Source: a virus (taxonomy: Duplodnaviria > Heunggongvirae > Uroviricota > Caudoviricetes). Taken from it: DNA of 29,121 nucleotides. The DNA lies in IMG/VR virus record IMGVR_UViG_3300032030_000021, positions 1 through 29,121 of that record; one strand, given 5' to 3'. The translations under genes and the position numbers were made by a program. Below are positions 1-29,121 of the stretch, piece after piece (the first letter of the stretch is position 1; each line of letters opens with the position of its first letter). The notes beneath the pieces are model-generated. The model did no database searches and was not told the origin of the DNA. It saw only the letters and a list, made by a program, of their open reading frames with translations.

Positions 1-276
1 GCTCAAGGCCAGAAAGGCGGAAATGGCATCACGGGACCTGTAGGATATACCGGAACTACTCCTTCCGGCGGCGATCAAGGATATCAGGGTACTCAAGGTA
101 CTCGTGGATCTCAAGGTTACAGTACTACCGGTACTAGAGGCACACAAGGCGCACAAGGTGTACAAGGCAATAGAGGTACTAATGTACAAGGCGCTCAAGG
201 CCAGAAAGGCGGAAATGGTGGTAATGGAGATATCGGATATACTGGGACTACAGGAACGGGAGGAGATCAAGGATAT
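1..276 (+). repeat. 192-bp (64-codon) higher-order repeat inside the collagen region
   Basis: gctcaaggccagaaaggcggaaatgg at 1-26 and 193-218; gatcaaggatat at 73-84 and 265-276; both offsets are 192 bp. Confidence 0.85.
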
Positions 277-1386
277 GCGGGTACTAAAGGTACTAAAGGT
301 ACTCAAGGTACAATAGGTACGGCTGGTACTAGAGGTACGCAGGGTGCGCAGGGTGCGCAAGGTAATTGGGGTATCTGGGGTAACTGGGGCACCTATGGAA
401 ATCCCGGTGTGATGATTGTTGGTGAACAAGGGGGATCCGGAACTGTTGGCATTCAAGGCCCAACCGGCACATCATTCTATGTAAACTTTTATGCTGAGGG
501 TGGTGGCGGGAGTGCTATTAACTGGAACACCATGAATTTAAGCATGACCAGGAAGTTTAATTCGACAGGCAATGATCACCCGGGACATACTGACATAATA
601 CTTACCTCCGCATGTATCAGTAACAATCAAATATCACAGGGTATTTTGTATATCTTTATTGATCCTTATTATGTAGCAACCGTAACACAAGAGTCTTGGA
701 GGCAACCAAAATATACTACTATTGTAATAGACTCCGTCGAACTAATTACAGGCATAAAATTAAATATAGCAAACTATAATCACTATGAGAATTATATCAG
801 AGTAACAAATGTTTCGGGCACGGATATACCAATTAGTATAGGGTGGTATGGTGGTCTTATGGTGGATATAAAAGAAACCAATGACGATACAACTGCGGAA
901 ATTATGGGATATACATTCTATGATGGAACGAAAACAACACAAGCGGCGTGTGAAGTGTTTGTTCAAGATGAATTATGGAGTGGATATATGTTGCCGAACA
1001 CGAAAACTGTAGAAATAAGCTATGTTTCTCCTCAGGTTATTACTGATACGAGTTATTTTAATGAGGGCAATTGTTGCAGATCCGAAGGAGTTATTACAAT
1101 ATCCGGAGAAATGTCATATATTGGATATTGTGATTATATGACGGAAGGCTCTTGGGTAGAAGTAATTCCCGCTATTCAACCAGAAGGCGAGGAGCTTCCA
1201 AGCAGCTTCACGAACGAACCGGTTATTAAAACCGGCAATAACGGAAATCCTGTATATTTCTATACTCCACAAGCATATAATCGAGAACTGGAATCCGGTT
1301 TATATCCTCACGATTGGACACCGGGTATTGTAGGAAGTCCAATTACATGGCCGGTAAGATCCAGAACTACCCCATATTATCAATAA
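1..1386 (+). CDS. Collagen-like (Gly-X-Y) fibre protein with C-terminal globular domain; 5' end lies outside the window
   Basis: Frame +1 is open from base 1 into the listed 409 ATG. Bases 1-470 translate as AQGQKGGNGITGPVGYTG...GTQGAQGAQGNWGIWGNWG...GEQGGSGTVGIQGPTG, followed by a ~300-aa non-repetitive domain. Ends TAA before a terminator. Confidence 0.85.
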   Translation, partial: AQGQKGGNGITGPVGYTGTTPSGGDQGYQGTQGTRGSQGYSTTGTRGTQGAQGVQGNRGTNVQGAQGQKGGNGGNGDIGYTGTTGTGGDQGYAGTKGTKGTQGTIGTAGTRGTQGAQGAQGNWGIWGNWGTYGNPGVMIVGEQGGSGTVGIQGPTGTSFYVNFYAEGGGGSAINWNTMNLSMTRKFNSTGNDHPGHTDIILTSACISNNQISQGILYIFIDPYYVATVTQESWRQPKYTTIVIDSVELITGIKLNIANYNHYENYIRVTNVSGTDIPISIGWYGGLMVDIKETNDDTTAEIMGYTFYDGTKTTQAACEVFVQDELWSGYMLPNTKTVEISYVSPQVITDTSYFNEGNCCRSEGVITISGEMSYIGYCDYMTEGSWVEVIPAIQPEGEELPSSFTNEPVIKTGNNGNPVYFYTPQAYNRELESGLYPHDWTPGIVGSPITWPVRSRTTPYYQ

Positions 1387-1396
1387 ATGAATATAC

Positions 1397-1419
1397 AGAT
1401 CCCTTCGGGGGTCTTTTTT
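1397..1419 (+). terminator. Rho-independent terminator
   Basis: agatccc-ttcg-ggggtct stem (cUUCGg loop, one G-U pair) followed by a T run, just after the fibre gene stop. Confidence 0.85.
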
Positions 1420-1447
1420 ATTATTATATAAATTAAACAATTCTAAT

Positions 1448-1870
1448 ATGATTTCATTAAGAAACTTTATATCCGATACAGTGGATTCGGTAAGACCAGA
1501 TTCACTTTCTAGATTATATAACAATCTCTGGGGGGCGTATTCTAATACTATTATGAGAAGACTTCCGGATGAATCGTATGAAATTACCGGACACGCTATT
1601 AAATATACCGGATATTTTGTTAATTTACTCACATGTAGAACTGTACCACAATCACCGCTTATCAATCTCGATAAAAGTTGGAATGAAATCTTGATCCGGA
1701 ATAACATGTGTGCTTGGTTTGACAAAGACGCATCCGGTTTTCCGATTATTCGCATAAAAATGTGTTGCGAGGAATGCAAACCCGGATTAGAGATTCCGGA
1801 GGGCGTAGACGCAATGGATGTTTGTGACACATTAACATGTATAGAACCATATAAAACACCAGAAGATTAA
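1448..1870 (+). CDS. Hypothetical protein (140 aa, Cys-containing C-terminus)
   Basis: ATG with A-rich leader; TTATTATT at 1418-1425; next gene starts 5 nt after the stop. Confidence 0.75.
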   Translation: MISLRNFISDTVDSVRPDSLSRLYNNLWGAYSNTIMRRLPDESYEITGHAIKYTGYFVNLLTCRTVPQSPLINLDKSWNEILIRNNMCAWFDKDASGFPIIRIKMCCEECKPGLEIPEGVDAMDVCDTLTCIEPYKTPED

Positions 1871-1875
1871 TATTA

Positions 1876-3738: not shown

Positions 3739-3844
3739 GATATATAAATGTATATTTTTGGAGAGATCTTTTGTTATACGGCAGATAAATGCGCATAAAT
3801 AATATATTTTTGAATATTATTTTAAGAGAACTAAAAAATATTTT

Positions 3845-4252
3845 ATGAAAACTCTACAAGAATCTATAATAGGAAGGCGGTCAAGTGATCGTACAATTAA
3901 TATAAATGATATAAAAACCGGAGATATTATAAAATTCCGAAGTGGTTTGTTGGCTATGGCTTACATCAATGAAGATAATTATTATTCCGGATTTTATTAT
4001 AATTTTACTAGTCCTAAGATGAAAAATACCACTAATTTAATAATGAGTAGTATGTTTTCAAAAGATTTAAAACATAAAATAGTTGACTATCTCGATATTA
4101 TAGATGTATACAGAGACCCTAATAATATTATAGGTAGCGACAAAAATTTTAAAGGATTTAAGGTCGGGCGGGATTATTCGGCTTTAGAAAAATCTAACCT
4201 TCAAAGACTGATAGATAATGGAGATTATGTAATAATATATGAAGAAAAATGA
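3845..4252 (+). CDS. ESIIGRK-leader family protein 1 (shared LxTGDIV...DIIDVY body)
   Basis: Starts MKTLQESIIGRRSS; body has IKTGDIIKFRSG...FSKDL...LDIIDVYRDP; GAATCTATAAT at 3860-3870. Confidence 0.85.
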   Translation: MKTLQESIIGRRSSDRTININDIKTGDIIKFRSGLLAMAYINEDNYYSGFYYNFTSPKMKNTTNLIMSSMFSKDLKHKIVDYLDIIDVYRDPNNIIGSDKNFKGFKVGRDYSALEKSNLQRLIDNGDYVIIYEEK

Positions 4253-4659
4253 AGACATTACAAGAATCTATAATAGGACGAAAAGGTGTCTCTTCCGGTA
4301 AAACAGGATTGTGGCAAATAGGTATGTTAGTTCCGGTATCTTCCAATAAAAAAGGCAAGATATATGACATATTGACACATATAACCGAGCAAAATAATCG
4401 TAGAGCTCGTAGAGCTAATTATGACAGCTATATAGATCAGTTATCCGATCTTTTGAAAATAAAATCCAATATTGCCGGTTTTAGAAACAAAGCGGAGGCT
4501 ATAGAAGTAGCTCAAAAATATGCAAAACAGATAAATCCGTCAGAATACAGATTTATAGGGATTACCAGAAGTTACGATGATGAACCGGGGTCTTTAGATT
4601 GGGATTATATATTAGGAATAGACAACAATCGTAAATTATTCATAATGCATAAAAATTAA
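4249..4659 (+). CDS. ESIIGRK-leader family protein 2 (unrelated body)
   Basis: Starts MKTLQESIIGRKG; ATGA overlap with the previous gene; GAATCTATAAT at 4264-4274. Confidence 0.85.
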   Translation: MKTLQESIIGRKGVSSGKTGLWQIGMLVPVSSNKKGKIYDILTHITEQNNRRARRANYDSYIDQLSDLLKIKSNIAGFRNKAEAIEVAQKYAKQINPSEYRFIGITRSYDDEPGSLDWDYILGIDNNRKLFIMHKN

Positions 4660-4669
4660 AAAAGAACAT

Positions 4670-4963: not shown

Positions 4964-6613
4964 ATGAAAAGTCTATTTGAACATTTACAAGATTTTATGG
5001 AGGGTTGGCATACATCCTGGACCGAACCCGAATTCATGGGAGCTAAAACATCGACGGGTGTATATAACGATAAAGGTGAATATGCTACCTTTGTATTTAA
5101 TCCAAAAACTAAAAAATATGAGGCCACAGATCCAGATTCCGGTGATGTCTTATCTATGGATGATGTTATGCAATATTCATACGATACGGGATATGCTCCT
5201 ATGATTTGTCCTCCTAGCGTTGCAAATAACGATCCAAACAACAAATATAACCAATTGAATTTATCTCTCATGAATGTTGGGGGTAAAATCGAATCTTCCG
5301 AGAATGTAGATAAACTAAACGGTAAAAGCGCCGGTAGTTGGGCAGTGAATCCTCATATGACGGACGATGAACTTAAAGAATGGAAAAAGACGTCCCCGGA
5401 AGCATATAATGAAAATAGAGCCAATGTTCAGATGTATTGGAATTCGGTAGCTAGTCCGTCATCAAGAGAACACGGTGTGGCTGTAGTAGGTAAGGCCGGA
5501 TGGGGTAAATCCGAAATTATGACGTCGGTAGCCAGAGCGTCCGGATATGATGTCATCATTGTAAATTTGTCTATGGCAGCGTCTGAAGATGTATTGGGTA
5601 TTCCGGTTCCCGATAGAATGGCTTCCGGACAATTAAAAACCGAATATGCAGCTCCGGGTTGGTTGGCGTATGTAGCACAGCATCCTGATGATAAAATTTG
5701 CATTTTCTTTGACGAATTCAATCAAGCCAGCATGGATGTATTGGGCACTATTCAGAACTTCTTACTTACCAGAACCGTTAATGGGGTGGAATATAAGAAT
5801 ATTAAGTTTATGGCTGCCGGTAATGAAAAATCCGAGAACAGATCTTTAGTGAGAATGGAAGATCTGAACGCTATTCACCAAAGATTCAAAGTATGGCATT
5901 GGCTAACCGACTGGAATTACTATTTCGATTGGCATAGAAAAGAATTTGAAAAGAAACTTGGCAAGCCCCTTATGGATGAATTTGATGCCAATAAAGAATC
6001 TTTTGCTTCTCCTAGAAACTTAACTATACATATTTTCGGATGGATAGAAGAAGCTATTAATCATCTTAAAAAAGACCCTACTGATGTATCTATTTACACG
6101 GGAGACCGTATATTGACTATGTTCTATGACAATTCTATTGCAAAATGGAATGAGGATGAACATAAATTCGAGCAAATTTCAGATTCACAAGCCAAAAATC
6201 TTGCCGATCTAGCCGACTATGTAGCTAAATATATATATGATGCGGCTATCGGTGGTTCTACCAACACCGGATCCGGTCACACCTTCGGTTCCAAAAATCG
6301 TACTACTATGGAAAAATCGGATGTTCAAAGATTGAGAGATATGATGCAGGATGGATTTGTATTGGCGGAAGACGGTAATACATATGGTATATGTAAAGAA
6401 AACATCATGTATGTATTTGACGAATCTATATATCCGGCGGAAGTAGTAGAAAGAACTGTCGAAACACTGGAAAAAGTGGAAGGCATTAAATGGAAATATA
6501 CAACCAAAAAACAATGTAAGGCCGGATGCAAAAAAGAAGGAATTGCCGATAATATAGAAGTAGACTTGGATAAGTTTGTTGCCGATGATAAAGGTAATGT
6601 TACCGAAAAATAA
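4964..6613 (+). CDS. MoxR-type AAA+ ATPase
   Basis: Walker A GKAGWGKS, Walker B IFFDEFNQ, sensor-1 FMAAGN, Arg finger AIHQRF; adjacent to a vWA gene. Confidence 0.85.
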   Translation: MKSLFEHLQDFMEGWHTSWTEPEFMGAKTSTGVYNDKGEYATFVFNPKTKKYEATDPDSGDVLSMDDVMQYSYDTGYAPMICPPSVANNDPNNKYNQLNLSLMNVGGKIESSENVDKLNGKSAGSWAVNPHMTDDELKEWKKTSPEAYNENRANVQMYWNSVASPSSREHGVAVVGKAGWGKSEIMTSVARASGYDVIIVNLSMAASEDVLGIPVPDRMASGQLKTEYAAPGWLAYVAQHPDDKICIFFDEFNQASMDVLGTIQNFLLTRTVNGVEYKNIKFMAAGNEKSENRSLVRMEDLNAIHQRFKVWHWLTDWNYYFDWHRKEFEKKLGKPLMDEFDANKESFASPRNLTIHIFGWIEEAINHLKKDPTDVSIYTGDRILTMFYDNSIAKWNEDEHKFEQISDSQAKNLADLADYVAKYIYDAAIGGSTNTGSGHTFGSKNRTTMEKSDVQRLRDMMQDGFVLAEDGNTYGICKENIMYVFDESIYPAEVVERTVETLEKVEGIKWKYTTKKQCKAGCKKEGIADNIEVDLDKFVADDKGNVTEK

Positions 6614-12193: not shown

Positions 12194-12432
12194 TATTAGT
12201 GTTTTTGTCCGGATTTGGACCAGGCAGAACAATATGTGTAACTAATCAGCTCCAAAACTGGGATGAAAATTTAATTTCATTAAACCCAAACCTATTTGGT
12301 AAATGGGATGTAGTTAAAATATATCATAAACCGACAAACAAAACATTCTATAGAAAATCATCTTTTAAAAAATTAAATGAATATGTAGAATGGATCAGAA
12401 ATAATGTGAATCCTATAGTTATAAATCAATGA
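12184..12432 (+). pseudogene. 5'-truncated paralog of the ESIIGRK-family gene at 18810-19199
   Basis: ...NWDENL...KWDVVKIYHKPTNK...KKLNEYVEWIRNNVNPIVINQ* aligns with ...SWDDNL...QFDIVRVYRKPRNK...IKLKDYINWIIDNVKPININQ*. The frame is closed upstream by TAA at 12181; no leader is present. Confidence 0.7.
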
Positions 12433-13640: not shown

Positions 13641-13664
13641 AACCGGGGAATTCCCCGGTTTTTT
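13641..13664 (+). terminator. Rho-independent terminator (perfect 20-bp palindrome)
   Basis: aaccggggaattccccggtt followed by tttt. Confidence 0.85.
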
Positions 13665-15618: not shown

Positions 15619-16195
15619 AAATTACATCATCTACTATTTTAGCTACCTTATCATCTCCTATTATATCATTAAGGAGTATGGGCTTTTTAGATTGGCTTGG
15701 GTTGGCTATATATAATGGATCTTTATATTCATACCCGTCTCTAACATGCGGAAATATAAATATAATAGTATTCCGAAATTCCGGTATAATACTCAATCCA
15801 TCGGATATGGCACTAGCCATAGCATCTATGTCCCATTTTGAATGAGTTCCCCATTCATCTCCTTGAAAAGTATATTCTACACATATGGCTTGTATATCAT
15901 TTCCGGATTCATTAAAGAATTGTCGAGGTACTGTTATCGGAAATATAGCACAATCTTTAGGGGCACACCAATTACCTAGAGTCCGAATAAGTTTGGAAGG
16001 ATTCTTATAAACTTTTTTAAATCCGGATCCGTTAGGATCATTTACGAGTCCAGCCCCATTATGATGAAATAAAGTATTTATTATCTTATAAGCTTTGTCT
16101 ATATTAAATTTTGCCGGATTGCTTGACATGTTCAATATAGAACTTAATGATGTAGTTCCTTTACGACCGATTATAGATTCTTTTATAGATCTCAT
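15605..16195 (-). CDS. ESIIGRK-leader family protein 3 (196 aa, unrelated body)
   Basis: MRSIKESIIGRKG; TAATG stop-start overlap with the RimK gene; motif at 16170-16180. Confidence 0.85.
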   Translation of the reverse strand: MRSIKESIIGRKGTTSLSSILNMSSNPAKFNIDKAYKIINTLFHHNGAGLVNDPNGSGFKKVYKNPSKLIRTLGNWCAPKDCAIFPITVPRQFFNESGNDIQAICVEYTFQGDEWGTHSKWDIDAMASAISDGLSIIPEFRNTIIFIFPHVRDGYEYKDPLYIANPSQSKKPILLNDIIGDDKVAKIVDDVIYEVF

Positions 16196-17850
16196 TATAG
16201 CTCGGTTTTTTCGATTTCCTTAGTCAGGAGGTGTGTCTTGGAAGGATTGATTATATAGCCCATCCAGCTCATCAATTCCCTATTCAGTAATATATTAGTG
16301 TTCTTCTTGATATCCGGTTCTTTAGCTAGTGCGATAGGAATATCGAAGATCATGCGGTTTCCTAGCCGGATGCTATGGAATTTCACAATAGGTCTGGTGG
16401 TTCTATTGCCACCCACAATAGGATTGCTTACGTCCTTATATTCTTTCTCGAAGGTAGTGCCTTGGATGGAGAATGTGACTTTCTTATGTTCTTCGTCGAT
16501 TTGCAGGTCCGGAATAGTCAGGCAGGTGGCTTTAGTGCCGTTGCCGGTATCCAGCTTGCCCAATAGTTCCAATGTATGTCCTTCATCTAGACTTAATTCT
16601 ACTGCTTCCACATATCCGGATTGTTTGTCTTGAAGGAAGAACTCTTTAGGATTAGTAAGCTCATTAACCATCACATTAACAAAATTCACACCCAGAACAT
16701 CGGTGATACCATCGGTACCCGGAGAGGCATTTAGTTCTAATACCACATTATCTCCCAGTTCTTTATTAGACCCTTTGACCAGTGGCATGATATCTACCGC
16801 ACACCAGGGGAGCTTGGAATACATAGCGGCTCGCAATGCTATCTGTTCTTGCTCGGAAGTGAGCTTGACCTTCTCGGCGGTAGCTCCTAGTGAGACATTG
16901 CTCCGGAAGTCACCGGAGATCTTCACCCTCTTCATAGCTCCTAAGATCACTTGTCTATCTCTCAAGGTCAGAACATGAACTCTTATGTCGCCCCCATCAG
17001 CTTCCTCTTTGGATTGTATGATAAGCTCTCTCTCCGGATCTACGGCAAAGATGGTCTGAAGGATAGCCATGAGCTTCTTGCCATCGGTCATGAACACACC
17101 GGTGCCGCCATGACCATCCAGGATCTTGACGACAAACTTCAGCTCTTCGTTCTTGTCGGAGTCTTTAGGGTTCCATTTCTCATTGACATCTTTCATGCGT
17201 TCATTAAAAAGCTCTTCGTTATGAATGATGTCTATAGAGAGCAGTGCAAAATTCGGTTGAGGGATGTCGTTTTTCCGCAATAGAGCGGCTGTCTTGTATT
17301 TATTGGAAGCTATCTGAGCGGGCTGCAGTGGATTTAATACTAGAAAACCTCTGTCTTGGATGATATTCAAGACTTCCTCGCAGTTGCCTTCTCCTTGTAC
17401 TCCCAATCTGGAAAATACTAGTGTATTAGCATTATTGAGACCTTCGAAATCCAGTTCATCATCATCATCTCTTATAGAGAATCCTTCTTCCGTTTCGGTA
17501 GCAATGGTTTTCTCCGCTAAGAATAGATGTAATTCCGGTACTAAAGATTTAGATTTTTTAATAGATTTGATAGCATCAAGAATATTTTTGAGAGTCTTGT
17601 TTTCTTTGGGATCTTTAGAGTTAGTGAATACTATCCAGTGTTCGAATATATTTTTGCATTCCTTGAATTTTAGATCCGCATATACTACGGGAAGGTCTTC
17701 CGATGGTGTTATTTTTTCAGGATCTTCGGGGTCATCGGTTTCCTGATTGACTTCCGTTATGGGTTCTTCAATAGGTTTAGTTGATTCTTGTATGTTATAA
17801 TATCTCCGGACATCTTCCGGAGACTCAAATTCGTTATACAACTTTTCCAT
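16195..17850 (-). CDS. rimK: RimK-family ATP-grasp ligase fused to a C-terminal retropepsin-like (RimB-type) protease, with an acidic N-terminal extension
   Basis: SNKYKT...IPQP, FVVKILDGHGGTGV, DIRVHVL, AMKR...DFRSNVSLGA, AVDI and VLELNASPG (RimK motifs); then GKLDTGN...R(T)RPIV...NILLNRELM (aspartic-protease-like). Confidence 0.8.
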   Translation of the reverse strand: MEKLYNEFESPEDVRRYYNIQESTKPIEEPITEVNQETDDPEDPEKITPSEDLPVVYADLKFKECKNIFEHWIVFTNSKDPKENKTLKNILDAIKSIKKSKSLVPELHLFLAEKTIATETEEGFSIRDDDDELDFEGLNNANTLVFSRLGVQGEGNCEEVLNIIQDRGFLVLNPLQPAQIASNKYKTAALLRKNDIPQPNFALLSIDIIHNEELFNERMKDVNEKWNPKDSDKNEELKFVVKILDGHGGTGVFMTDGKKLMAILQTIFAVDPERELIIQSKEEADGGDIRVHVLTLRDRQVILGAMKRVKISGDFRSNVSLGATAEKVKLTSEQEQIALRAAMYSKLPWCAVDIMPLVKGSNKELGDNVVLELNASPGTDGITDVLGVNFVNVMVNELTNPKEFFLQDKQSGYVEAVELSLDEGHTLELLGKLDTGNGTKATCLTIPDLQIDEEHKKVTFSIQGTTFEKEYKDVSNPIVGGNRTTRPIVKFHSIRLGNRMIFDIPIALAKEPDIKKNTNILLNRELMSWMGYIINPSKTHLLTKEIEKTEL

Positions 17851-18811: not shown

Positions 18812-19199
18812 ATTGATTTATATTTATAGGTTTCACATTATCTATAATCCAATTTATATAATCTTTTAATTTTATAGGATTATATCGAACATCCCATAAA
18901 ATTTTTTTATTTCTAGGCTTGCGATAAACCCGGACTATGTCGAACTGTCTATTAATTCTATCAGAACCTGTCGCTTTCAGATTGTCATCCCAGCTGGTTG
19001 TATAATTAGCAGCAATATGAAATTCTCCAAAATTTCCAACGGAAGTAATAAAAGCATCGTGTTTATCATAATAATATTTTGGAGTAAAAACAAAAAATAT
19101 ACCAGCTACAGATTCTACTATATCGCCTCCTTGCAAGCTTTGTTTTGTGATCGAGATTGCTCCTTTTCTTCCTATTATAGATTCTAATAATGTTTTCAT
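18810..19199 (-). CDS. ESIIGRK-leader family protein 6 (shared body)
   Basis: MKTLLESIIGRKG...LQGGDIV...WDDNL...FDIVRVYRKP; ATGA overlap with the upstream paralog; motif at 19174-19184. Confidence 0.85.
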   Translation of the reverse strand: MKTLLESIIGRKGAISITKQSLQGGDIVESVAGIFFVFTPKYYYDKHDAFITSVGNFGEFHIAANYTTSWDDNLKATGSDRINRQFDIVRVYRKPRNKKILWDVRYNPIKLKDYINWIIDNVKPININQ

Positions 19200-19648
19200 C
19201 TTTCAAATATTTTAGTTACACCGGATTTGATCATATTACATATATTATCCTGTTGAATGGATTTTATTCCATTTCTTAACCATAAAGTTCCTGCGGGTGA
19301 CCGATATATAGTCAATGGGTTAGAATTAAACATTTTTTCCAGAGAAGGCTCTCCGTGGTAATAAAAATGATTATCAAATCTAGATAAATCTAATATAATT
19401 ACTTCAGTTAAACTGAATCCAAACACCAATATGCCTTCCGGGTAATAGTCCGTTGTCGGTATAGAATGAGAGGAGTTTGTTAAAACTTGAGAAAATTTAT
19501 TGACAAAAGAATTCAATTCACCGGGCAACCAAACAACTCCGAAAATATCCCTATTTTCAATCCAAAATATGTCGCCGGTCGATAGATTCGTTTTGCCTTG
19601 TTTAGTTATTCCCCTTCTTCCTATTATAGATTCTATTAGCGTCTTCAT
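19196..19648 (-). CDS. ESIIGRK-leader family protein 5 (shared body, divergent)
   Basis: MKTLIESIIGRRG...LSTGDIFW...FDNHF...LTIYRSP; ATGA overlap with the M15 gene; motif at 19623-19633. Confidence 0.85.
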   Translation of the reverse strand: MKTLIESIIGRRGITKQGKTNLSTGDIFWIENRDIFGVVWLPGELNSFVNKFSQVLTNSSHSIPTTDYYPEGILVFGFSLTEVIILDLSRFDNHFYYHGEPSLEKMFNSNPLTIYRSPAGTLWLRNGIKSIQQDNICNMIKSGVTKIFER

Positions 19649-20109
19649 ATTTTCACATATGTTTTTCCGTTATAATATAAACGTTGTTTCCGATTAGTGC
19701 CGTTCCATTTGTGAGATACATGAATCCATTGGGGAGCGGTGAGTGTACCTTTCTCTAAAATCAGCTGATCAAACGGCAACCTCATAGACACTATAGTATC
19801 AAAAAGCTTGCGCGTTTTGACTGTATCCAGCACGTTCTTGCCTCCCACTTTCTTAACACAATAGATATCCGCGGCTTGTCCGGACATATGCTGGCTGGTT
19901 TTAGAGCCGCCGACCTTAGAATTCAAGGCCTTGCAACGGTATCCGGAAGATACTATGATCGGACATCCCATCTTAACTCTCAATGGATCCAAGATATTTT
20001 CTATCAGTTTGGTGAGGTTTTGTGTTTCTATTATGCTGGGAACATTTTTTATGCCATATTTATCGGCGGTAGAACTCTTGCATAATTCGGATATAGTGAA
20101 GTATTTCAT
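19645..20109 (-). CDS. Peptidase M15 family Zn peptidase (putative endolysin)
   Basis: SSGYRC..LN..VGG...SQH..GQAADI...WIHVS (H-x6-D...H Zn ligands). Start reassigned to ATG 20109 (MKYFTISEL), which has TTATTATT 19 nt upstream. Confidence 0.85.
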   Translation of the reverse strand: MKYFTISELCKSSTADKYGIKNVPSIIETQNLTKLIENILDPLRVKMGCPIIVSSGYRCKALNSKVGGSKTSQHMSGQAADIYCVKKVGGKNVLDTVKTRKLFDTIVSMRLPFDQLILEKGTLTAPQWIHVSHKWNGTNRKQRLYYNGKTYVKI

Positions 20110-21023: not shown

Positions 21024-22175
21024 ATGGCAGTCCCAGCATCATATCATATATATCAAACCCCTGTTCATGCCGTGGGAAAAAATGTAATAGCCGGCGGTGT
21101 TATATTGGATAGAGTCATAACCGATGAAGGTTATAGATATGACTTTTTTAATAAAAGCCATAAAGTAACAGAATCGGGAACAGCTTGGATGTATGAATTA
21201 CCTCCGGAAAACGCGGAACCCGCTCATATTGTATTAGACGCGTGTGTATCCGAACTTCAACCCGACCCAAATGATCCGACAAAACGGATATTATATAGCC
21301 ATATGATATTAGATTTAGACTCTGGTGAGCCGTATAATATAAATACGATGATATCTAATATTGGAAACCATATCGATAGTCTTGATCCGGTTACATATTA
21401 TAATCGGAGCGCTAATCAGATTATCCAAGGTATAGATTCCGGAGATCGTATTCTATTTGCCGTATTGTATAATATGTATTATTACAGATTCGAACAATCT
21501 GATGAAGGTGGCTATGTTGAATCGTTCTGGCCATATCTGAGTTTTACTAGAATGGATGCGACAAGAATGTGGTATAGTGCACTGGCATACAGCGTAGAAC
21601 ACGGAAACCGGCAATACAAACCCGGATCTAGTGAATATATTACGGATTGGCCCGGATATACACCCGGATATGCCGATTATCATCCTTATTACTTTATGAG
21701 TCATCCCGGATTAGTGTTTGAATGCTTCCGCGAATGTCCGGAAGAGGATTATACTATCCGATCTCTCAATGGATTTGATAATCATGGCGAATATCATGTA
21801 AATGCGTCTAGATTGGCTAGCATACTTACAGGTAATCATTGGGGATTGCAGATATTTGCTGATGGTGCATCTCCGTCATATGAACATATTGCAAATATTT
21901 TAGAACAGCAATCGCTTATAAATAACTTTTCCAATCTGCAATGCCCATATGGAAGAATTGGCTGGCCGTTATTTGAATACGAGGCACAACTTAATGTATA
22001 TTCCTCGGATAGAACATTAATATCCCTAGAATGTCAGAATAATACTACTTGGATGGATCCGAATACCGGTACGGAATATCCTACTAATATCCTCTATGAT
22101 AATGAACCTATAGATACTCCTTTGAATTATCCGATATTTGTAGCGATTGCCGGACATGTTAACCGTAGATGGTAA
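21024..22175 (+). CDS. Hypothetical protein (383 aa, Tyr/Asn/Pro-rich)
   Basis: Long ORF with ATG and A/T-rich leader; no motif recognised. Confidence 0.8.
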   Translation: MAVPASYHIYQTPVHAVGKNVIAGGVILDRVITDEGYRYDFFNKSHKVTESGTAWMYELPPENAEPAHIVLDACVSELQPDPNDPTKRILYSHMILDLDSGEPYNINTMISNIGNHIDSLDPVTYYNRSANQIIQGIDSGDRILFAVLYNMYYYRFEQSDEGGYVESFWPYLSFTRMDATRMWYSALAYSVEHGNRQYKPGSSEYITDWPGYTPGYADYHPYYFMSHPGLVFECFRECPEEDYTIRSLNGFDNHGEYHVNASRLASILTGNHWGLQIFADGASPSYEHIANILEQQSLINNFSNLQCPYGRIGWPLFEYEAQLNVYSSDRTLISLECQNNTTWMDPNTGTEYPTNILYDNEPIDTPLNYPIFVAIAGHVNRRW

Positions 22176-22629: not shown

Positions 22630-22760
22630 ACTACCCAGCCGCTAAAGGCGGCCGAGCTTCCCGTCTTTGAAGAGATCCTTGCATTTATCGTAAGAGATCT
22701 TCTTCCCGGGCTTTAAGTCGACGGTCCCCGCCGACTGTATAGCTTTATAGAACCCGATCA
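22606..22760 (-). ncRNA. Predicted TnpB omega/reRNA scaffold plus flanking guide (5' boundary approximate)
   Basis: TnpB reRNAs are known to overlap the tnpB 3' end and right end. The guide would be the flank after TTCAC: TTTAAATTCATTATGCTGAG. Confidence 0.5.
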
Positions 22761-23172
22761 TATTCTTTGCCGCATGCACGTCCCGGTCTCCGGTCTCGCC
22801 GCATTTCGGGCACACAAAGGTCCGTTGGGATAGATCCATCGCGGCATCGGTCCCACAGGACAGGCAGCGCTTCGTAGTCGGAAACCATTGGTCTAACACG
22901 AATACATTATCTTTTCTTCTCAGCTTAGCCTTGACCCTTCCGAGCACGGAATGCTGGACCGTCTTGGATAGATGCTCGTCTTCGCGCCATTCCCGGTGCC
23001 GGACCCGTGTAGCCTTACCGGCTTCGCTTATAGCTCTATTTTTGTCTAATCGACTCATATCTAAATAATAAGATCCGGATTAATATCGTTAATGTTTCTT
23101 ATATTTATATTAGTAGCCAATCTGTGTATCCATGCAGCTAAAGGCTACACGGTTTTACAGATTGAAATTATA
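22626..23172 (-). mobile_element. Non-autonomous IS200/IS605-family (IS1341-like) mini-element
   Basis: On the minus strand the right end reads ...GGCCGCCTTTAGCGGCTGGGTAGTTCAC. The left-end hairpin CAATCTGT...CCTTTAGC...ACAGATTG spans 23118-23164. A candidate TAM TTTAT lies at 23173-23177. No tnpA is present. Confidence 0.8.
22642..23058 (-). pseudogene. tnpB: tnpB with a large in-frame internal deletion
   Basis: Keeps QHSVLGRVKAKL, WFPTTKRCLSCG, FVCPKCG (Zn ribbon) and DRDVHAAKN (RuvC-III). Only 138 aa; RuvC-I Asp and RuvC-II Glu motifs are not visible. Confidence 0.8.
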
Positions 23173-23187
23173 ATAAATTTTTGATAT

Positions 23188-24552
23188 ATGAAGAAAATAG
23201 TAGTTTGTGGTTTAGGTTACGTAGGACTGGTGCATATTCTAGGGTGCTGGATAAGTGCTCGGGACAATGGTGCCCGAGATTATATGTTTATAGGATATGA
23301 TCCGGATGAAGAGAAAATCAATAAAATCATGTCTGGTGAGTGTCCGATTGTAGAACCAGGTCTGCCCGAGGTCTTGAATGATGCCTTGAAGGATCCGGAT
23401 CATTTTAAAGTATGCTCCGATCCGGCCTGTTGGTACTGCGACCCGGATGTAGATATGGTATTTTGCTGTGTCGGAACCCCAATGTCCGATGATGGATCCG
23501 CTGATTTAAGATATGTATATGAACTGGCGGAGAGTTTCGGGGCACATATCGGAAATCTTCAAGCCACATTTGTGAATAAATCTACGTGTCCGGTTGGAAC
23601 CTGTAATGTATTGTATAATATTATTATTGGAAATTTAAATTTCGGTAATTCAAACATCGGAGTACTTTCCAATCCGGAATTTCTTGCGGAAGGAACGGCA
23701 TTAAACGACATGCTATCTCCGGATAGAATTGTTATCGGAGGTATAACGGATCATGTCGAGAGATTGAGAGAATTTTATAAGTCTATTGGCCTCATGCCAG
23801 ATGAAGCTGACTGCGTGGCCACTACATGGGAGAATGCCGAATTAATTAAATACGCTTCCAATGCCATGTTAGCCACACGTATTAGCTTTGTCAATGACTT
23901 AGCCGATTTATGTGAAAAAGTTGGAGCCGATGTAAGAATCGTGACCGAATGTATGGGTATGGACCATAGGATCGGACAGGCATTTTTAAAGCCGGGTCCC
24001 GGATATGGGGGGTCGTGTTTTCCAAAAGATACTAATGCATTATTGCATCAAGGTATATCTAATGGCGTAGAAATGAGGGTGGTAGATGCCGTTATTAGAA
24101 GTAATACATATCACCGGGAAAAGGCTTCCAATATAGTATCGGAACTTATCGGATATGTCGGACCTAAGGGTATTGGAAAAATCGGAGTCATCGGAGCCGC
24201 ATTTAAGTCCGGTACCGGAGACTTGCGGGAATCTCCGGCGGTAGATCTTCTCCGATATCTGGCGAATTTGGGTAAGGAAATTATGGTATTTGATGAGAAT
24301 GTTTCCGAAAAGGAGTTATCTTATGCCGTACCATGCGATCATCCGGAGCGCTTGATAATGAGCCCGTTAGAAGATTTAAAAGATTGTAATTTGGTAATAA
24401 TCATGAATCCGGAAAACATTGTATGGCCGGAAGCCGGAACTCATGATATCCGAATAGTATTAGATATGAGATGTTGTGTGTCCGATTCGACCATTAAAGA
24501 TTTTGAAAATCAAGGAATTATATATATCGGACACGGACGTGGTAATATATAA
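23188..24552 (+). CDS. ugd: UDP-glucose 6-dehydrogenase (UDP-glucose/GDP-mannose dehydrogenase family)
   Basis: GLGYVG, CVGTP, NKSTCPVGT, SNPEFLAEG, AELIKYASNAMLATRISFVN, GPGYGGSCFPKD (catalytic Cys) and AFKSGTGDLRESP. Confidence 0.92.
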   Translation: MKKIVVCGLGYVGLVHILGCWISARDNGARDYMFIGYDPDEEKINKIMSGECPIVEPGLPEVLNDALKDPDHFKVCSDPACWYCDPDVDMVFCCVGTPMSDDGSADLRYVYELAESFGAHIGNLQATFVNKSTCPVGTCNVLYNIIIGNLNFGNSNIGVLSNPEFLAEGTALNDMLSPDRIVIGGITDHVERLREFYKSIGLMPDEADCVATTWENAELIKYASNAMLATRISFVNDLADLCEKVGADVRIVTECMGMDHRIGQAFLKPGPGYGGSCFPKDTNALLHQGISNGVEMRVVDAVIRSNTYHREKASNIVSELIGYVGPKGIGKIGVIGAAFKSGTGDLRESPAVDLLRYLANLGKEIMVFDENVSEKELSYAVPCDHPERLIMSPLEDLKDCNLVIIMNPENIVWPEAGTHDIRIVLDMRCCVSDSTIKDFENQGIIYIGHGRGNI

Positions 24553-24627
24553 TATCTTTTATAGTGCACAATACTCGTAATATTATAAAGATTTATAAAA
24601 AACTTTTTGTATCAGATATATAAGAAC

Positions 24628-26370
24628 ATGATAAAAGTTTGTATTGCCGAAAAGCCTAATGTAGCAAAATCTATTGCTAAAGTTCTTGGTGTTCGAGATT
24701 ATAAAGACGGATATATAGAAGGAGATAGTCCATTGCTTGAGTGTCATGTGTTTGTAACCTGGACTTTTGGACACCTTTGTGAATTGAAAACCCCCGGAGA
24801 ATATAATAGGAGATGGAGTAAATGGAATCTCAGAAATCTTCCCATGATTCCTTCAAGTTTTGGAATTAGGGTTAAAGACGATGAAGGTATCAAAAAGCAA
24901 TTTAATACCATCAAAATGCTATTAGAACAATGTGATGAATGTATTAATTGCGGAGATGCAGGACAAGAAGGCGAATTAATTCAGAGATATGTTCTTCAAC
25001 AGGCCGGGTTCAAGAAGCCGGTCAAGCGCCTTTGGATTTCATCTCTAACGGATGAAGCTATTAAAAACGGTTTCCGAAACCTGGATAATGCATCTAAATA
25101 TGATAATGTTTATCGCGCAGCTCTTTGTAGAAGCATCGGGGATTGGTTAGTAGGAATGAATGCAACGCAATACCAGACTCTTATATCCGGTAATCGAAGC
25201 CTATTATACTCCGTAGGCAGGGTCCAGACTCCAACACTTGCGCTTATAGTGAATCGGCAAAAAGAAATAGATGCCTTTGTACCGGAAAAATATTATGATT
25301 TTACAGCCATTTGCCAAAAGGTAAAATTTGAAGGAGCCAATACATTTAAAGATAAAAAACAAGCCGAAGAGGTCTTCAAGAAAATCAAAGACCTTCCAAT
25401 GGTCATTTCCAAAGTGGAGCATAAGAAGCAATCCGAGAAGCCACCACAACTATTTGATCTCACCTCCTTACAGGTGGAAATGAATAAGAAAAACGGATGG
25501 AGTGCCGACGATACTCTTAATACCTTGCAATCTCTCTATGAAAAACAGCTGGTAACCTACCCACGTGTAGATACTCGTTATCTTCCGGAAGACATGTATG
25601 AAGAATGCAAGCGGATTCTTTCCGGACTCATCTCCGATTATGACTGCGAAGGCGATATGCCCGACGAAATTAAGAAATCAAGAGATATTTTTGATAATAA
25701 GAAAATTACGGACCACCACGCCATTATCCCGACCGGCAAATGGGATAGTAATATCACCTCGGAAGAGCATACCCTATATGATGTAATAGCCCGGAGATTA
25801 TTGTGTGCGTTTGCCCGACCCTTTCTTACAGCTAATACATATGTTGAGAGTACAGTTGGTGATGAGAAATTCAAAGCATCCGGGCGCACTGTTTTAGACA
25901 TGGGCTGGAGAGAGATAGCTCGTATCAAATCCGAAGATGAACCAATGCCGGAATTTGTAAAAGGCAAAGAATACAATCAGTCCATGAAGCTTAATTCTCA
26001 TACCACCAAAGCACCGGCATATTACACGGAAGCAACCTTATTAAGAGCTATGGAAACAGCCGGCAAGATGGTTACGGATGAAGAAATGGCGGAAGCTATG
26101 AAGGAAAACGGCATAGGCAGGCCATCTACAAGAGCCGCTATTCTAGAATTGCTTTTCAAAAGAAAATATTTAATTCGAGATGGCAAGTCTATCAAACCCA
26201 CCGCTACAGGCATATACCTGATTGATCATATCAAGGATCCCATTCTAAAATCTCCGGAACTCACGGGACAATGGGAGTGCAAGCTCCGCAAGATAGAAAG
26301 GGGTGAATATGACCCGAAAAAATTCAAAGAAGAACTTTATGATTTTGTTAAAGATATCGTAAAAAAATAA
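24628..26370 (+). CDS. topB: Type IA DNA topoisomerase (topoisomerase III, Bacteroidales-type)
   Basis: IAEKP, VTWTFGHL, NCGDAGQEGELI, RLWISSLT, SVGRVQTPTL, LVTYPRVD (catalytic Tyr), DHHAIIPT and GIGRPSTRA. ATG 24628 is preferred to the listed TTG 24607. Confidence 0.92.
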   Translation: MIKVCIAEKPNVAKSIAKVLGVRDYKDGYIEGDSPLLECHVFVTWTFGHLCELKTPGEYNRRWSKWNLRNLPMIPSSFGIRVKDDEGIKKQFNTIKMLLEQCDECINCGDAGQEGELIQRYVLQQAGFKKPVKRLWISSLTDEAIKNGFRNLDNASKYDNVYRAALCRSIGDWLVGMNATQYQTLISGNRSLLYSVGRVQTPTLALIVNRQKEIDAFVPEKYYDFTAICQKVKFEGANTFKDKKQAEEVFKKIKDLPMVISKVEHKKQSEKPPQLFDLTSLQVEMNKKNGWSADDTLNTLQSLYEKQLVTYPRVDTRYLPEDMYEECKRILSGLISDYDCEGDMPDEIKKSRDIFDNKKITDHHAIIPTGKWDSNITSEEHTLYDVIARRLLCAFARPFLTANTYVESTVGDEKFKASGRTVLDMGWREIARIKSEDEPMPEFVKGKEYNQSMKLNSHTTKAPAYYTEATLLRAMETAGKMVTDEEMAEAMKENGIGRPSTRAAILELLFKRKYLIRDGKSIKPTATGIYLIDHIKDPILKSPELTGQWECKLRKIERGEYDPKKFKEELYDFVKDIVKK

Positions 26371-26585: not shown

Positions 26586-26626
26586 ACTGCGGCGAGTTCG
26601 CAAATCAATTTTTTTCATGATTATGG

Positions 26627-26656
26627 GAAAGGCATTCTAATGAGTGCCTTTCTTTT
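26627..26656 (+). terminator. Rho-independent terminator
   Basis: gaaaggcattc-taat-gagtgcctttc plus tttt (one G-U pair). Confidence 0.75.
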
Positions 26657-26684
26657 ATTATTTTTGGTAGAATATACAAATAAG

Positions 26685-27401
26685 ATGGATAATTTTAGTG
26701 AACATGTCGGTTTTCAAGTATGGGATGGACATAATAATCTGATCGGCGGAGACGGCAGGATAGTATGCAAACGCAATGTTTGTGCCGTAAATCCAGATGC
26801 TATAGGTTCTCATTATGATATGATTAGTAAATTTATAGAAGAACAATATGACCCAAAATTCCATATATTACTAGCCTCCGGAGATAATATCACGGACCTG
26901 CAAAAATCCATGTCTCTAAAGCAATGTAAGGGCATAGGCGAAATCTTTGTGTTGAAACACAAGAATCTTTATACTACTCCGATAGTTAATTATAACATGC
27001 TAGATATTGTCCGGGAAGATCTTCGGCCAGTGTATCTTCATTGGGACATGATCAAAGATCCGGAATGGGAAAGACTTGAAAAATTCCTGAGAGGGCATCG
27101 GAGTCCCGTTGTATTATGTCATTTAGGTATCAATAAGGAATTCAACAATCAGAAATCCGTTATCAAAAAATTCAAAAAACTCCAAAAAGAATATGATAAT
27201 CTCTGGGGAGAGATCTCTTGGGATGCACTGGATTGGGTATGCAAATATCCGGAAAGTATAAAAGGGATGGACGAAGATCGGATATTCACCGCCTCCGATC
27301 TAGCTCCGTTGGATAATCAAAATAAACGGGAACTGCAAATAGCTTCCATGTCGGGATTGATCAGCAGCTCTAATAACATCAAAAAACTATTCGGAATATG
27401 A
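26685..27401 (+). CDS. Amidohydrolase-superfamily (TIM-barrel metal-dependent hydrolase)-like protein
   Basis: WDGHNN (degenerate D-x-H-x-H), PVYLH, PVVLCHLG, NLWGEIS and DRIFTASD in the usual order. Start reassigned to ATG 26685 because the listed 26640 start lies inside the terminator. Confidence 0.6.
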   Translation: MDNFSEHVGFQVWDGHNNLIGGDGRIVCKRNVCAVNPDAIGSHYDMISKFIEEQYDPKFHILLASGDNITDLQKSMSLKQCKGIGEIFVLKHKNLYTTPIVNYNMLDIVREDLRPVYLHWDMIKDPEWERLEKFLRGHRSPVVLCHLGINKEFNNQKSVIKKFKKLQKEYDNLWGEISWDALDWVCKYPESIKGMDEDRIFTASDLAPLDNQNKRELQIASMSGLISSSNNIKKLFGI

Positions 27402-27832
27402 AAACACTAATTGAATCTATAATAGGGAGAAAATCATCCAATACACCGCTTGTCAATGCCAGAACAAGACTCAGACAGGGAGATATTGTTTATTTTGAGA
27501 AGTCAAATTTAGGCCCATACTTGGTAATTTTGGACAAAAACTTATATAAAAGAATCAGCCAAAGATCAACACCGAAAGATGAGGCTGAAAAAGACGGGTT
27601 TCTTGTACAGAGTCAATATAAATATGGGTATTATATGGTACCATTATCCGGATATGATAAAGATCTTCGATATAAATTAAATTCGGATTATGATATTACA
27701 ACGGTATTAAGAGGAAACGAAATATCGTCGGATGATATTGAAGATGTATGGGATTTTATTGATTGGTACCATTTAAGTAATCTCACCGATAAATTCAAAG
27801 TAGTATTTAAAGACGAAAAATGGATAAAATAA
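27398..27832 (+). CDS. ESIIGRK-leader family protein 7 (shared body)
   Basis: MKTLIESIIGRKS...LRQGDIVYF...YLVI...YDKDL...YDITTV; ATGA overlap; motif at 27413-27423. Confidence 0.85.
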   Translation: MKTLIESIIGRKSSNTPLVNARTRLRQGDIVYFEKSNLGPYLVILDKNLYKRISQRSTPKDEAEKDGFLVQSQYKYGYYMVPLSGYDKDLRYKLNSDYDITTVLRGNEISSDDIEDVWDFIDWYHLSNLTDKFKVVFKDEKWIK

Positions 27833-27839
27833 ATTTATA

Positions 27840-28307
27840 ATGAAAACATTAACCGAATCTATAATAGGGAGAAAAAGTGATGCGATAGAATGGCCCGTTC
27901 TAGATAAAATCCGGAATCAGGAATTTTCGGATTTGATTCCTTATAACATTGTCAAGGTAGACTATTCCGAACCACATGGATCTAAATATGGAATAATAGT
28001 TCCGGAAGACATTGCGTCAAAATTCTTTGGAGTCCAATATAGGGAATACAAGGGAAAATGCGGCTCCGTTTTATTTTATGATCCCGCAACTCATGGAGAA
28101 ATAGTTTTTGTCGCAATAGATCATTATAAAAAACAATTTCCAAGACCATTTATCAATCGGGTGGGATTTGAAATAATTGATATATGGGATGGATCTAAAG
28201 CTTGGCGGACATTTGAATATCGTCTTAAAACAGTTGAAGATTATGCAAAATTCCTAAGGTGGTCCGTTGATAAACCGGAAGAATTTGAAAGAATGTTAAA
28301 ACCGTAG
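27840..28307 (+). CDS. ESIIGRK-leader family protein 8 (shared body, divergent)
   Basis: MKTLTESIIGRKS...DLIPYNIVKV...FEIIDIW; motif at 27855-27865. Confidence 0.85.
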   Translation: MKTLTESIIGRKSDAIEWPVLDKIRNQEFSDLIPYNIVKVDYSEPHGSKYGIIVPEDIASKFFGVQYREYKGKCGSVLFYDPATHGEIVFVAIDHYKKQFPRPFINRVGFEIIDIWDGSKAWRTFEYRLKTVEDYAKFLRWSVDKPEEFERMLKP

Positions 28308-28369
28308 CAAGATGTAATTTACAAATTCCAAATTATTTATTATTTAGAAAAAGAAATAAACAAAACATT

Positions 28370-28942
28370 ATGTTACCTCATATATCCCAATCTACCGCCG
28401 GTATTAATAAACACGACCCGGTATATAACAATATATTTGAAGCATACTTCACTATTCCCGAGGCATTACAGAGTGAATTCGGTAATGATGTAGCTGTTCT
28501 AACGGAACAAGTAAAATCTATTTCCGGCCTAGAATCTCTAGATAGAGCTCCCGAGGTTGTACAACAGACCTTCTTGGGAGCCAAGCGTTCTTATCTAGCT
28601 TCCCGTTTGGACGACACTTCTCATGAATTAGAGATCGTATTCCAATTGAATTTAAGAAACGGCACCGACAACTATATTTATAAACTTCTCAAAGCATGGA
28701 ATGCCTGCGGATATGATCAGAATACCGGTTCTACAACTTTGAAACCCGGATATTGTGCCGATTGGATGAAATTGGTTATCGGTAACCGCGGCGGCGATAT
28801 CTTCAGAGAAATCATTTATAAAGACGTATTTCCTTTCGGTGGTCTGACCGGCTGGAATGAAGCTACTTATGATTCTACAGGTGAGCTTATTGAAATCACC
28901 ATGAAACTTAAGAGCGATTGGGCTGCCGAAACTAATGCATAA
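28370..28942 (+). CDS. Tail tube protein (T4 gp19-like)
   Basis: 190 aa with NIFEAYF...VKSISG...FLGAKRSY...LEIVFQLN...YKLLKAW...YDQNTG...YKDVFP, the tube-protein pattern of a W followed by a FP motif; TTATTATT at 28337-28344. Confidence 0.75.
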   Translation: MLPHISQSTAGINKHDPVYNNIFEAYFTIPEALQSEFGNDVAVLTEQVKSISGLESLDRAPEVVQQTFLGAKRSYLASRLDDTSHELEIVFQLNLRNGTDNYIYKLLKAWNACGYDQNTGSTTLKPGYCADWMKLVIGNRGGDIFREIIYKDVFPFGGLTGWNEATYDSTGELIEITMKLKSDWAAETNA

Positions 28943-28982
28943 CTACACCGACCTTGCAGGGTTTGTGGAATATTACCCGACG

Positions 28983-29012
28983 AAAAATGGAGTCTCCGGA
29001 CTCCATTTTTTT
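28983..29012 (+). terminator. Rho-independent terminator
   Basis: aaaaatggagtc-tccg-gactccattttttt. Confidence 0.85.
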
Positions 29013-29041
29013 ATTATTAAAACAACAATAAATACAATATT

Positions 29042-29121
29042 ATGGCAGTTTTACCGGAATCACAGGCATATCAAAACGCACTAATTGCATTAAACACTAT
29101 TGTACAAGATGCATATAACGA
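29042..29121 (+). CDS. 5' end of a gene running off the window
   Basis: ATG 29042 gives MAVLPESQAYQNALIALNTIVQDAYN...; TTATTATT at 29011-29018. Confidence 0.6.
   Translation, partial: MAVLPESQAYQNALIALNTIVQDAYN

Follow-up and report, generated by a model that had tools for sequence, protein, structure and literature searches.

An oligonucleotide genome signature can be common to a phage and its host group. Palindrome patterns are species-specific, and the palindromes are usually under-represented (PMC3077040). In the cyanobacteria, HIP1 (GCGATCGC) and the alternate HIPs rCCGGy, GGCGCC and GCsGC have been described (Elhai 2015, PMC4390886; Xu et al. 2018, PMC5861425), and Elhai proposed a methylation-directed ratchet for the origin of HIPs (PMC4390886). 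Two further systems are relevant here: very-short-patch repair, represented by Vsr/Dcm in E. coli and by ScmA/VsrA (YGCCGGCR) in Caulobacter (PMC2715241, PMC12907096), and the 7-deazaguanine (Dpd) DNA modification of phages, of which DpdA3 forms a subfamily (Cui et al. 2023, PMC10516641). On CCGG over-representation in phages or in the Bacteroidales, a literature search of incomplete coverage found nothing relevant.

The window analysed here is 29,121 nt long and represents positions 1-29,121 of a 130.5-kb contig (G000) of an uncultured rumen phage belonging to a PAU/Lak-related clade; the contig covers ~61% of the phage genome, and ~39% is missing. The translation starts of the phage are Bacteroidota-like (Shine-Dalgarno 7%, A-rich at -3 and at -11 to -14). 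The first-pass annotation claimed a window-wide over-representation of CCGG, and this is borne out: the window holds 219 CCGG against 38.5 expected from base composition, and the excess runs through the whole contig, where every full 5-kb bin has 29-53 CCGG. The features concerned are as follows.

1-29121, no strand: dispersed excess of CCG/CGG and CCGG; 219 CCGG, with 476 CCG and 481 CGG on the + strand.
1448-1870, no strand: 140-aa ORF, with 7 CCGG at 1561-1800; a local example, no distinct element.
4964-6613, + strand: AAA ATPase gene, 13 CCGG.
13643-13658, + strand: terminator-like hairpin, each arm of which contains CCGG, with a T run after it; read from the sequence.
12447, 18795 and 28996: similar hairpins containing CCGG, read in the same way.
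21024-22175, + strand: 383-aa ORF of no known family, 12 CCGG.
22642-23188, no strand: putative IS relic (the label of the first-pass annotation), 547 bp, 47% GC, 7 CCGG (4.3x).
23188-24552, + strand: UDP-glucose/GDP-mannose dehydrogenase gene, 17 CCGG (6.5x).
24607-26370, + strand: type IA topoisomerase (Topo III-like) gene, 14 CCGG.

The hand counts that accompanied the claim (for 1561-1800, 4964-6613, 21024-22175, 23188-24552 and the 547-bp stretch) all proved exact, and CCGG does lie inside several terminator-like hairpins, as had been stated. The sites had also been placed mostly in a (T/A)CCGG(A/T) context; the preference is real, but "mostly" is too strong, as W-CCGG-W accounts for 108 of the 219 sites (49%), with ~38% expected. 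T is preferred before CCGG (49% at -1 in the window) and A after it, and TCCGGA occurs 248 times in the 130.5-kb contig (~1,900 per Mb).

In the contig, CCGG is 1.94x above a synonymous shuffle that preserves codon usage. Sites fall in all three codon phases, as first proposed, and each phase is enriched (391/365/141 observed against 257/150/56 in the shuffle, or 1.52/2.44/2.54x), while intergenic DNA contains 32 CCGG with 3.3 expected (~10x). The 981 CCGG of the contig compare with 175 expected at zero order (5.6x), 290 under a first-order Markov model (3.4x) and 913 under a second-order model (1.07x). Because a second-order Markov simulation of the window nearly reproduces the observed 219 (209 +/- 15), the tetramer amounts in this genome largely to a pair of CCG trimers that overlap; CCG outside CCGG is itself 3x enriched. 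In other words, the unit is CCG on either strand, and not the palindrome. Of the outcome that the first-pass annotation named as refuting its claim, namely that only a trinucleotide bias would be left, half came about: the excess survived the codon control, whereas the trimer control leaves 1.05-1.07x.

The main driver is the middle base of C-N-G, which is C or G at 80% of the positions where it is synonymous versus 31% otherwise. At fourfold sites in NC[N]|G the phage has A.10, C.44, G.36 and T.10, and before other bases A.27, C.21, G.10 and T.42; the synonymous C fraction reaches 0.89 in C[Y]GG and 0.75 in C[Y]GH, compared with 0.24-0.25 in D[Y]GH. The outer positions are biased too (odds 2.4-5). 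The pattern is strand-symmetric and independent of codon usage and gene class: the synonymous C fractions do not differ between genes of the + and the - strand, nor in genes of putatively high expression, and the odds are near equal in the two orientations (29 and 28). Translational selection is ruled out by this strand symmetry and by the equal bias in putatively highly expressed genes. Relative to the synonymous shuffle, the most depleted trimer is CAG/CTG (0.72), the central transition neighbour. Avoidance of CAG/CTG as a cause is also ruled out, because these codons show no avoidance when their middle base cannot change (Gln CAG 0.39, Leu CTG 0.17).

Like HIP1, the phage CCGG is a palindromic word enriched in all frames and in intergenic DNA, independently of codon usage, and a mutational ratchet is among the proposed origins of both. 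Unlike HIP1, its excess is 5.6x rather than 15-300x and falls to 1.07x after the second-order correction, its unit is a trimer, its flanks are T..A and not r..y, it shows no periodicity, it occurs in a phage, and no cognate methyltransferase was found in the contig (~61% of the genome). The phage CCGG is not a member of the HIP1 group.

A similar bias is present in bacterial chromosomes. The comparison used Bacteroidales-order genomes chosen for high TCCGGA, from the upper tail of 301. CCGG ranks first among the tetramers in G158, G210, G240, G259 and G236 (r 3.6-4.3), and G210 (Bacteroidota) has A.12, C.40, G.36 and T.12 at fourfold NC[N]|G sites, a near-exact match to the phage, with a trimer-profile r of 0.86. 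The C[Y]GG odds, 26 in the phage, are 37 in G158 and G210 and 15.6 when the CCGG-rich Bacteroidales-order samples are pooled. G006 belongs to the Spirochaetota, an unrelated lineage with the same pattern, many members of which rank CCGG first. As expected of a signature shared by phage and host, CCGG is first-ranked in CCGG-rich Bacteroidales-order chromosomes and its second-order residual is near 1 there, as it is in many Spirochaetota. Unlike the bacterial signature, that of the phage is stronger than in any bacterial sample tested, extends to C[Y]GH and comes without CTAG avoidance (0.52, versus 0-0.24 in nearly all compared bacteria). Among the weak points of the best reading are the phage TCCGGA density, above that of all 301 bacterial genomes (at most ~1,340 per Mb), and the barely avoided CTAG, unlike in nearly all of these bacteria.

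The signature narrows the host prediction to CCGG-rich Bacteroidota and counts against the Prevotella sample tested (CCGG ratio 0.32). The topoisomerase gene (24607-26370), which served as the handle for finding relatives, has best cellular matches of 51-53%, the named ones being Prevotella and Prolixibacteraceae. There was no spacer-like match to the phage in the six genomes of the family of G210, no close cellular homologue in two scans of genome contigs, and the TnpB comparison named no host.

Among the relatives, CCGG is the first-ranked tetramer in sister phages, and the CCGG ratio of L135 is 6.2 versus 5.6 in the phage. The C[Y]GG odds of close relatives are 8, 26 and 64, and free C-N-G sites are 90-94% C/G in L038, L131 and L135. 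The sub-clade of the phage has the strongest bias in the relaxed context C[Y]GH (3.8-13.6x versus 0.3-1.0 in sister phages). CTAG avoidance has been lost in this sub-clade; in sister phages CTAG and other words are almost wholly avoided. The strain-level contigs are 99.4-100% identical, except for one pair (96%), and therefore hold too few changes for a mutation spectrum.

We give a probability of roughly 55% to a context-directed substitution or repair bias toward CCG/CGG, strand-symmetric and shared with host-type bacteria, which would arise at a step in the host cell. Where it is free to vary synonymously, the middle base of 5'-C-N-G-3' ends as C or G, and the pull is stronger with a second G after or a T before, making CCGG and TCCGGA the sink. 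The cause may be a replication-error or mismatch-repair ratchet in a host-type cell, by which a mismatch at C-N-G would be resolved toward the CCG-carrying strand. Because the phage encodes its own family B polymerase and yet has its pattern in common with bacteria, a post-replicative host step, rather than the polymerase, would be responsible. In themselves the CCG and CCGG sites are probably functionless, and the pattern looks like a strong genome signature rather than a dedicated set of sites for binding or methylation. Of the HIP1-like process envisaged in the first-pass annotation, the DNA-level nature stands, codon usage being excluded and biased mutation or repair likeliest; a CCGG methyltransferase as driver, looked for in ~61% of the genome, is not supported, and the palindrome is not the unit. 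No enzyme behind the bias was found.

It is possible, though doubtful, that CCG/CCGG is favoured as a DNA-level feature (a protein-binding, nicking or shape signal, for example), either by weak selection across the genome or by biased gene conversion in recombination-dependent replication. A stationary model fitted to four lineages gives C[Y]GG a gain of about x20 and a loss of x0.75. A gain-only model fits these sites, symmetric selection being rejected at 2dLL 9-13 and protection-only strongly, at 41-53. For [Y]CG, the outer position, gain is, on the contrary, x2.0 and loss x0.43, as selection predicts, and symmetric selection fits where gain-only does not. Stationarity fails, since the C fraction at aligned C[Y]GG is 0.77-0.85 in G001, 0.89-0.94 in G000 and 0.96-1.0 in L038/L135; when G001 is left out, the rejection of selection falls to 2dLL 5-6, and lineages that decayed independently from a saturated ancestor could give the appearance of a high gain. 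Selection also accords with the retention of C between L038 and L135, at 27 of 28 C[Y]GG sites and at 17 of 17 C[Y]GH sites (controls 0.58), with raised transversions into the motif (A>C 0.67 versus 0.12 at DC[N]|GG), and with the conservation of CCGG between G000 and G001 (0.51, where the least conserved words, many of which contain CG, have 0.2-0.3). The spacing argues against it: the CCGG gaps are Poisson-like (CV 1.03, variance/mean about 1), with no short-range period in the contig and a kb-scale Fisher g p of 0.09, periods of tens of kb being weakly testable on 130 kb. The proposal of selection for densely spaced sites finds no support in the spacing. Moreover, the pattern recurs in unrelated Spirochaetota and Bacteroidota chromosomes, and therefore a virion function such as packaging is not the general cause.

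A modification or repair system encoded by the phage is unlikely; candidates would be the second DpdA with a ParB-like partner, FkbM, a DUF7487/Vsr-like/Mom protein or a gene in the missing part of the genome. As in Dpd phages, the contig encodes a DpdA3 homologue (40835-41638; 41% to the Flavobacterium immuto and Campylobacter CP220 enzymes), a second TGT-like protein (the second DpdA, 72442-73263) and a QueE-like radical SAM protein; two FkbM methyltransferases are also present, and the peak of C[Y]GH bias and the loss of CTAG avoidance in the sub-clade would suit such a system. However, other carriers lack the excess, both the DpdA3 phages (CCGG ratio 1.15 in immuto, 1.41 in CJLB-13 and 0.10 in phiST) and those with the second DpdA (0-1.6 in L119, L121, L123, L124, L125 and Campylobacter CC_R7), so neither DpdA is the cause and the Dpd system does not explain the bias. 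DpdA3 replaces all guanines and hence has no motif (PMC10516641), G005 has DUF7487/Vsr-like proteins with no CAG/CTG depletion, and bacteria display the pattern too. For the FkbM proteins, no viral relatives were retrieved, the PDB gave no match and the Atlas clusters were only generic FkbM; they remain a candidate lead.

[quoted passage not shown] Unlike such a footprint, the phage bias takes in transversions, beyond the reach of T:G repair, and outer bases, and neither the phage contig nor the best-matching bacterial genomes have a C5 methyltransferase or a Vsr above the cut-off. In the G000 contig (~61% of the genome), the PF00145, PF01555, PF02086 and PF05869 profiles had no match, no C5, N4 or N6 methyltransferase and no UDG (PF03167) was found, and Vsr (PF03852) gave only sub-cut-off matches inside DUF7487 proteins. 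C5 methyltransferases are rarer in CCGG-rich Bacteroidales-order genomes (6/24, versus 13/22 CCGG-poor ones; p = 0.035, kinship ignored). Vsr occurs in 4/24 and 6/22, respectively, with no positive association across the 46 genomes, and is absent from the five richest; G210, the closest match, has neither enzyme.

That the excess simply follows from the usage of codons or amino acids, or from avoidance of other words (CAG/CTG, CTAG or restriction sites), is already largely refuted: CCG makes up 41% of Pro codons and GGA 39% of Gly codons, and sister phages do avoid words, but the excess over the codon-keeping shuffle in all phases and between genes, the strand symmetry and the unavoided CAG and CTG codons speak against it, and G000 has no near-absent words and only mild CTAG depletion.

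We also speculate, rather doubtfully, that an undescribed, methyltransferase-independent CCG-directed repair or marking pathway exists in anaerobic Bacteroidota, and separately in some Spirochaetota, which the phage sub-clade may amplify, or encode for itself, to near saturation.

Phages avoid palindromes, and this one is clearly an exception; the best reading is that it shows an extreme form of a signature which bacteria carry too. It is of value as a test system: because the relatives differ in strength and one lineage is near saturation, complete genomes or population reads could show whether over-represented words arise through biased repair or through selection, a question that HIP1 also poses.

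The window contains 219 CCGG tetramers where base composition predicts 38.5, and the hand counts of the first-pass annotation proved exact on recount. The virus contig of which it forms the first 29 kb (G000; 130,540 bases, CheckV completeness 61%) holds 981, spread evenly at 29–53 per 5 kb, which is 5.6 times the zero-order and 3.4 times the first-order expectation and ranks CCGG first among tetramers. The spacing is random and without significant period (gap CV 1.03, variance/mean near 1). In a synonymous shuffle that leaves all proteins and the codon usage of the genome unchanged, the genes contain 462 CCGG, compared with 897 observed, with an excess in all three phases, and the intergenic DNA of the contig has 32 where 3.3 are expected. 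Because the excess both survives the codon-preserving shuffle and extends to intergenic DNA, it is a bias at the DNA level.

The first-pass annotation had held that a bare trinucleotide bias would leave no excess once trimers and codon usage were controlled. The codon shuffle leaves the excess standing, whereas fixing the trimer counts leaves little of it (second-order expectation 913 for the 981 of the contig, and 209 +/- 15 for the 219 of the window). Because 46% of CCG sit inside CCGG, holding the trimers fixed is to some extent circular, and these CCG were therefore excluded in a separate count: C preceding CG is enriched 2.9–3.1-fold without a following G and 3.6-fold with one. CCG is also the rank-1 trimer of the contig (z = 49). 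In other words, the unit of the bias is CCG. Fourfold sites of the form NC[N]|G (free base in brackets, | the codon boundary) carry C or G in 80% of cases, versus 31% before other bases; synonymous transition sites hold C with a frequency of 0.89 at C[Y]GG, 0.75 at C[Y]GH (H, not G), and ~0.25 in controls, with no difference between the strands or in genes presumed to be highly expressed. A weaker pull acts on the outer bases (odds 2.4 and 4.4), and TCCGGA is the strongest hexamer (2.9-fold). Where the middle base cannot change, there is no avoidance of CAG or CTG (Gln CAG 0.39, Leu CTG 0.17), so the genome is pulled to CCG rather than pushed from CWG. Pro-Glu dipeptides, for which CCG GAA contains CCGGA, are enriched 1.94-fold, as counted in the proteins of G000 alone, and the bias may thus extend to the protein level.

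The virus is a large T4-like phage with a Gp23 capsid protein, family B polymerase, NrdD, and a sigma factor. Its capsid protein shares ~30–34% identity with its counterparts in PAU, pT24, MA9V-2, and the Lak phages; its nearer relatives are uncultured contigs, presumably from the rumen, judging from study identifiers. Start regions are largely devoid of Shine-Dalgarno motifs (7%) and rich in A at positions -3 and -11 to -14, which is the pattern of Bacteroidota. Because of this pattern and the named cellular matches of the topoisomerase (Prevotella and Prolixibacteraceae), the host is probably a member of the Bacteroidota. Three further features were recorded, the first of which suggests recent movement of the gene.

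G000 109048-110289 and L038:6775-8016 (a close relative): 413-aa TnpB, 94% identical, at different locations
Window 3833-3876, 4237-4280, 15580-15622, 16157-16199, 19161-19203, 19610-19652, 27386-27429, 27828-27871 (both strands in the set of eight): repeated gene starts with a shared N-terminal tag
Window 12366-12430 and 18812-18876: two inverted repeats of 65 nt, complementary at 82% and separated by 6.4 kb

Among phages, CCGG outranks all other tetramers in the clade members G001, L038, G002-G005, L039, L118, L120, and L122 (2.4–4.7-fold) and reaches 6.2-fold in L135 and 5.9-fold in L131; no enrichment was found in PAU, Lak-A1, or LR756500. The sister lineages G002-G005 keep a second-order CCGG residual of 1.3–1.65 and nearly lack CTAG, whereas the window's sub-clade shows a bias relaxed to CCG and a CTAG frequency that is just halved. 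The CTAG ratio is 0.5–0.6 in G000, G001, L038, and L135, where avoidance is largely lost, and 0–0.2 in G002-G005, L039, and nearly all sampled Bacteroidales-order chromosomes. In L135, L131, and L038, C or G occupies 90–94% of free C-N-G positions, near saturation. The sister phage G002 (L018-L025) is nearly without CTAG, CTNAG, GGACC, CGACG, CCAGA, AGGAAG, CTTAAG, and GAATTC. These words are probably restriction sites of its host, and yet G002 encodes a DpdA3 homologue (41%) together with two N4/N6-family methyltransferases in tandem (L013, L014).

The bacterial sample comprised the TCCGGA-richest of 301 genomes in the order of a Prolixibacteraceae genome, and thus represents an upper tail. 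CCGG ranks first, at 3.6–4.3-fold, in G158, G210, G240, G259, and G236, all picked for high TCCGGA; a relative of G240 belongs to the Dysgonamonadaceae and G236 to the Bacteroidota. At C[Y]GG these TCCGGA-selected chromosomes have odds of up to 37, versus 26 in the phage, and the fourfold pattern of G210 (A.12, C.40, G.36, T.12) matches that of the phage (.10,.44,.36,.10) almost exactly. A Prevotella sample has a CCGG ratio of 0.32. The excess is common to many Spirochaetota; in the order of G006 (L055-L069), CCGG ranks first in many chromosomes, up to 4.9-fold, with a tetramer-specific centre and a strong outer-base bias. With ~1,900 TCCGGA per Mb, compared with at most ~1,340 among the 301 genomes, the phage bias exceeds every bacterial sample.

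Gain and loss at synonymous sites were fitted on an alignment of G000 with G001, L038, L135, and L131. At C[Y]GG, gain is ~20 times and loss 0.75 times that of the control; a gain-only model fits and protection alone is strongly rejected. At C[Y]GH both are altered (gain 4–7-fold, loss 0.35–0.5-fold). The C fraction at C[Y]GG differs between lineages (0.77–1.0), and therefore an apparently high gain could also result from the decay of a saturated ancestral state, which weakens the fitted rates. Weighing these fits with this caveat, we favor, at a probability of roughly 0.55, context-directed mutation or a mismatch-repair ratchet of the host type, which would drive the genome to CCG. The data establish the bias itself and where it occurs, and from them we infer an enzyme and a link to the host. 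Such a bias acts like the ratchet proposed by Elhai for HIP words (PMC4390886), but differs from HIP itself in size, Markov robustness, and periodicity (PMC5861425).

Weak selection or biased conversion is a less probable cause: a selection model is the best fit at the outer base, but symmetric selection is rejected at C[Y]GG (2dLL 9–13, dropping to 5–6 with G001 left out). A system encoded by the phage itself seems unlikely. The contig offers these candidate genes (L002 and L003 are stretches of G000):

G000 40835-41638: DpdA3
G000 72442-73263: second TGT-like gene (second DpdA)
G000 64120-64890 (L002:18120-18890) and 78490-79275 (L003:14490-15275): two FkbM-family methyltransferases, flanking the helicase-to-polymerase region
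G000 53296-54858 and 54855-56474 (L002:7296-10474): tandem genes immediately behind the capsid gene, for DUF7487 proteins with a weak Vsr-like segment

The second DUF7487 protein ends in a Mom-family domain (E 3e-8), and G002 has one FkbM-family methyltransferase. With a QueE-like gene, the two DpdA-type genes form a deazaguanine module, which we rejected as the cause: the CCGG ratio is 0–1.9 in carriers of DpdA3 or the second DpdA that lie outside the clade, and DpdA3 in studied phages replaces all guanines (PMC10516641). The second DpdA-like gene has a single match among 50,697 phage records, in the Campylobacter phage CC_R7 (PQ092953.1 177823-179068, L130; 57%), where it adjoins a small "DNA binding protein"; CC_R7 thus provides a cultured model for this gene pair.

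The methyltransferase-driven, HIP1-like process proposed in the first-pass annotation, with or without Vsr, is improbable. Searches of the contig (61% of the genome) yielded neither a UDG nor any methyltransferase of the C5, N4/N6, D12, or phage-Dam type, and for Vsr just sub-threshold matches within the DUF7487 proteins; this part of the genome lacks the pairing of Vsr with a C5 methyltransferase. Of the bacterial genomes, 6 of 24 CCGG-rich and 13 of 22 CCGG-poor ones encode a C5 methyltransferase, and the figures for Vsr are 4 of 24 and 6 of 22 (possibly incomplete genomes, counted without kinship correction). Transversions into the motif are also raised (A>C 0.67 versus 0.12), a pattern that T:G repair alone cannot produce. 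That the bias is a by-product is very improbable.

The literature searched, whose coverage is incomplete, yielded no earlier paper on a CCG/CCGG bias of this kind. Palindromes are usually under-represented (PMC3077040); the bias described here runs contrary to this rule and is an unusually strong genome signature.
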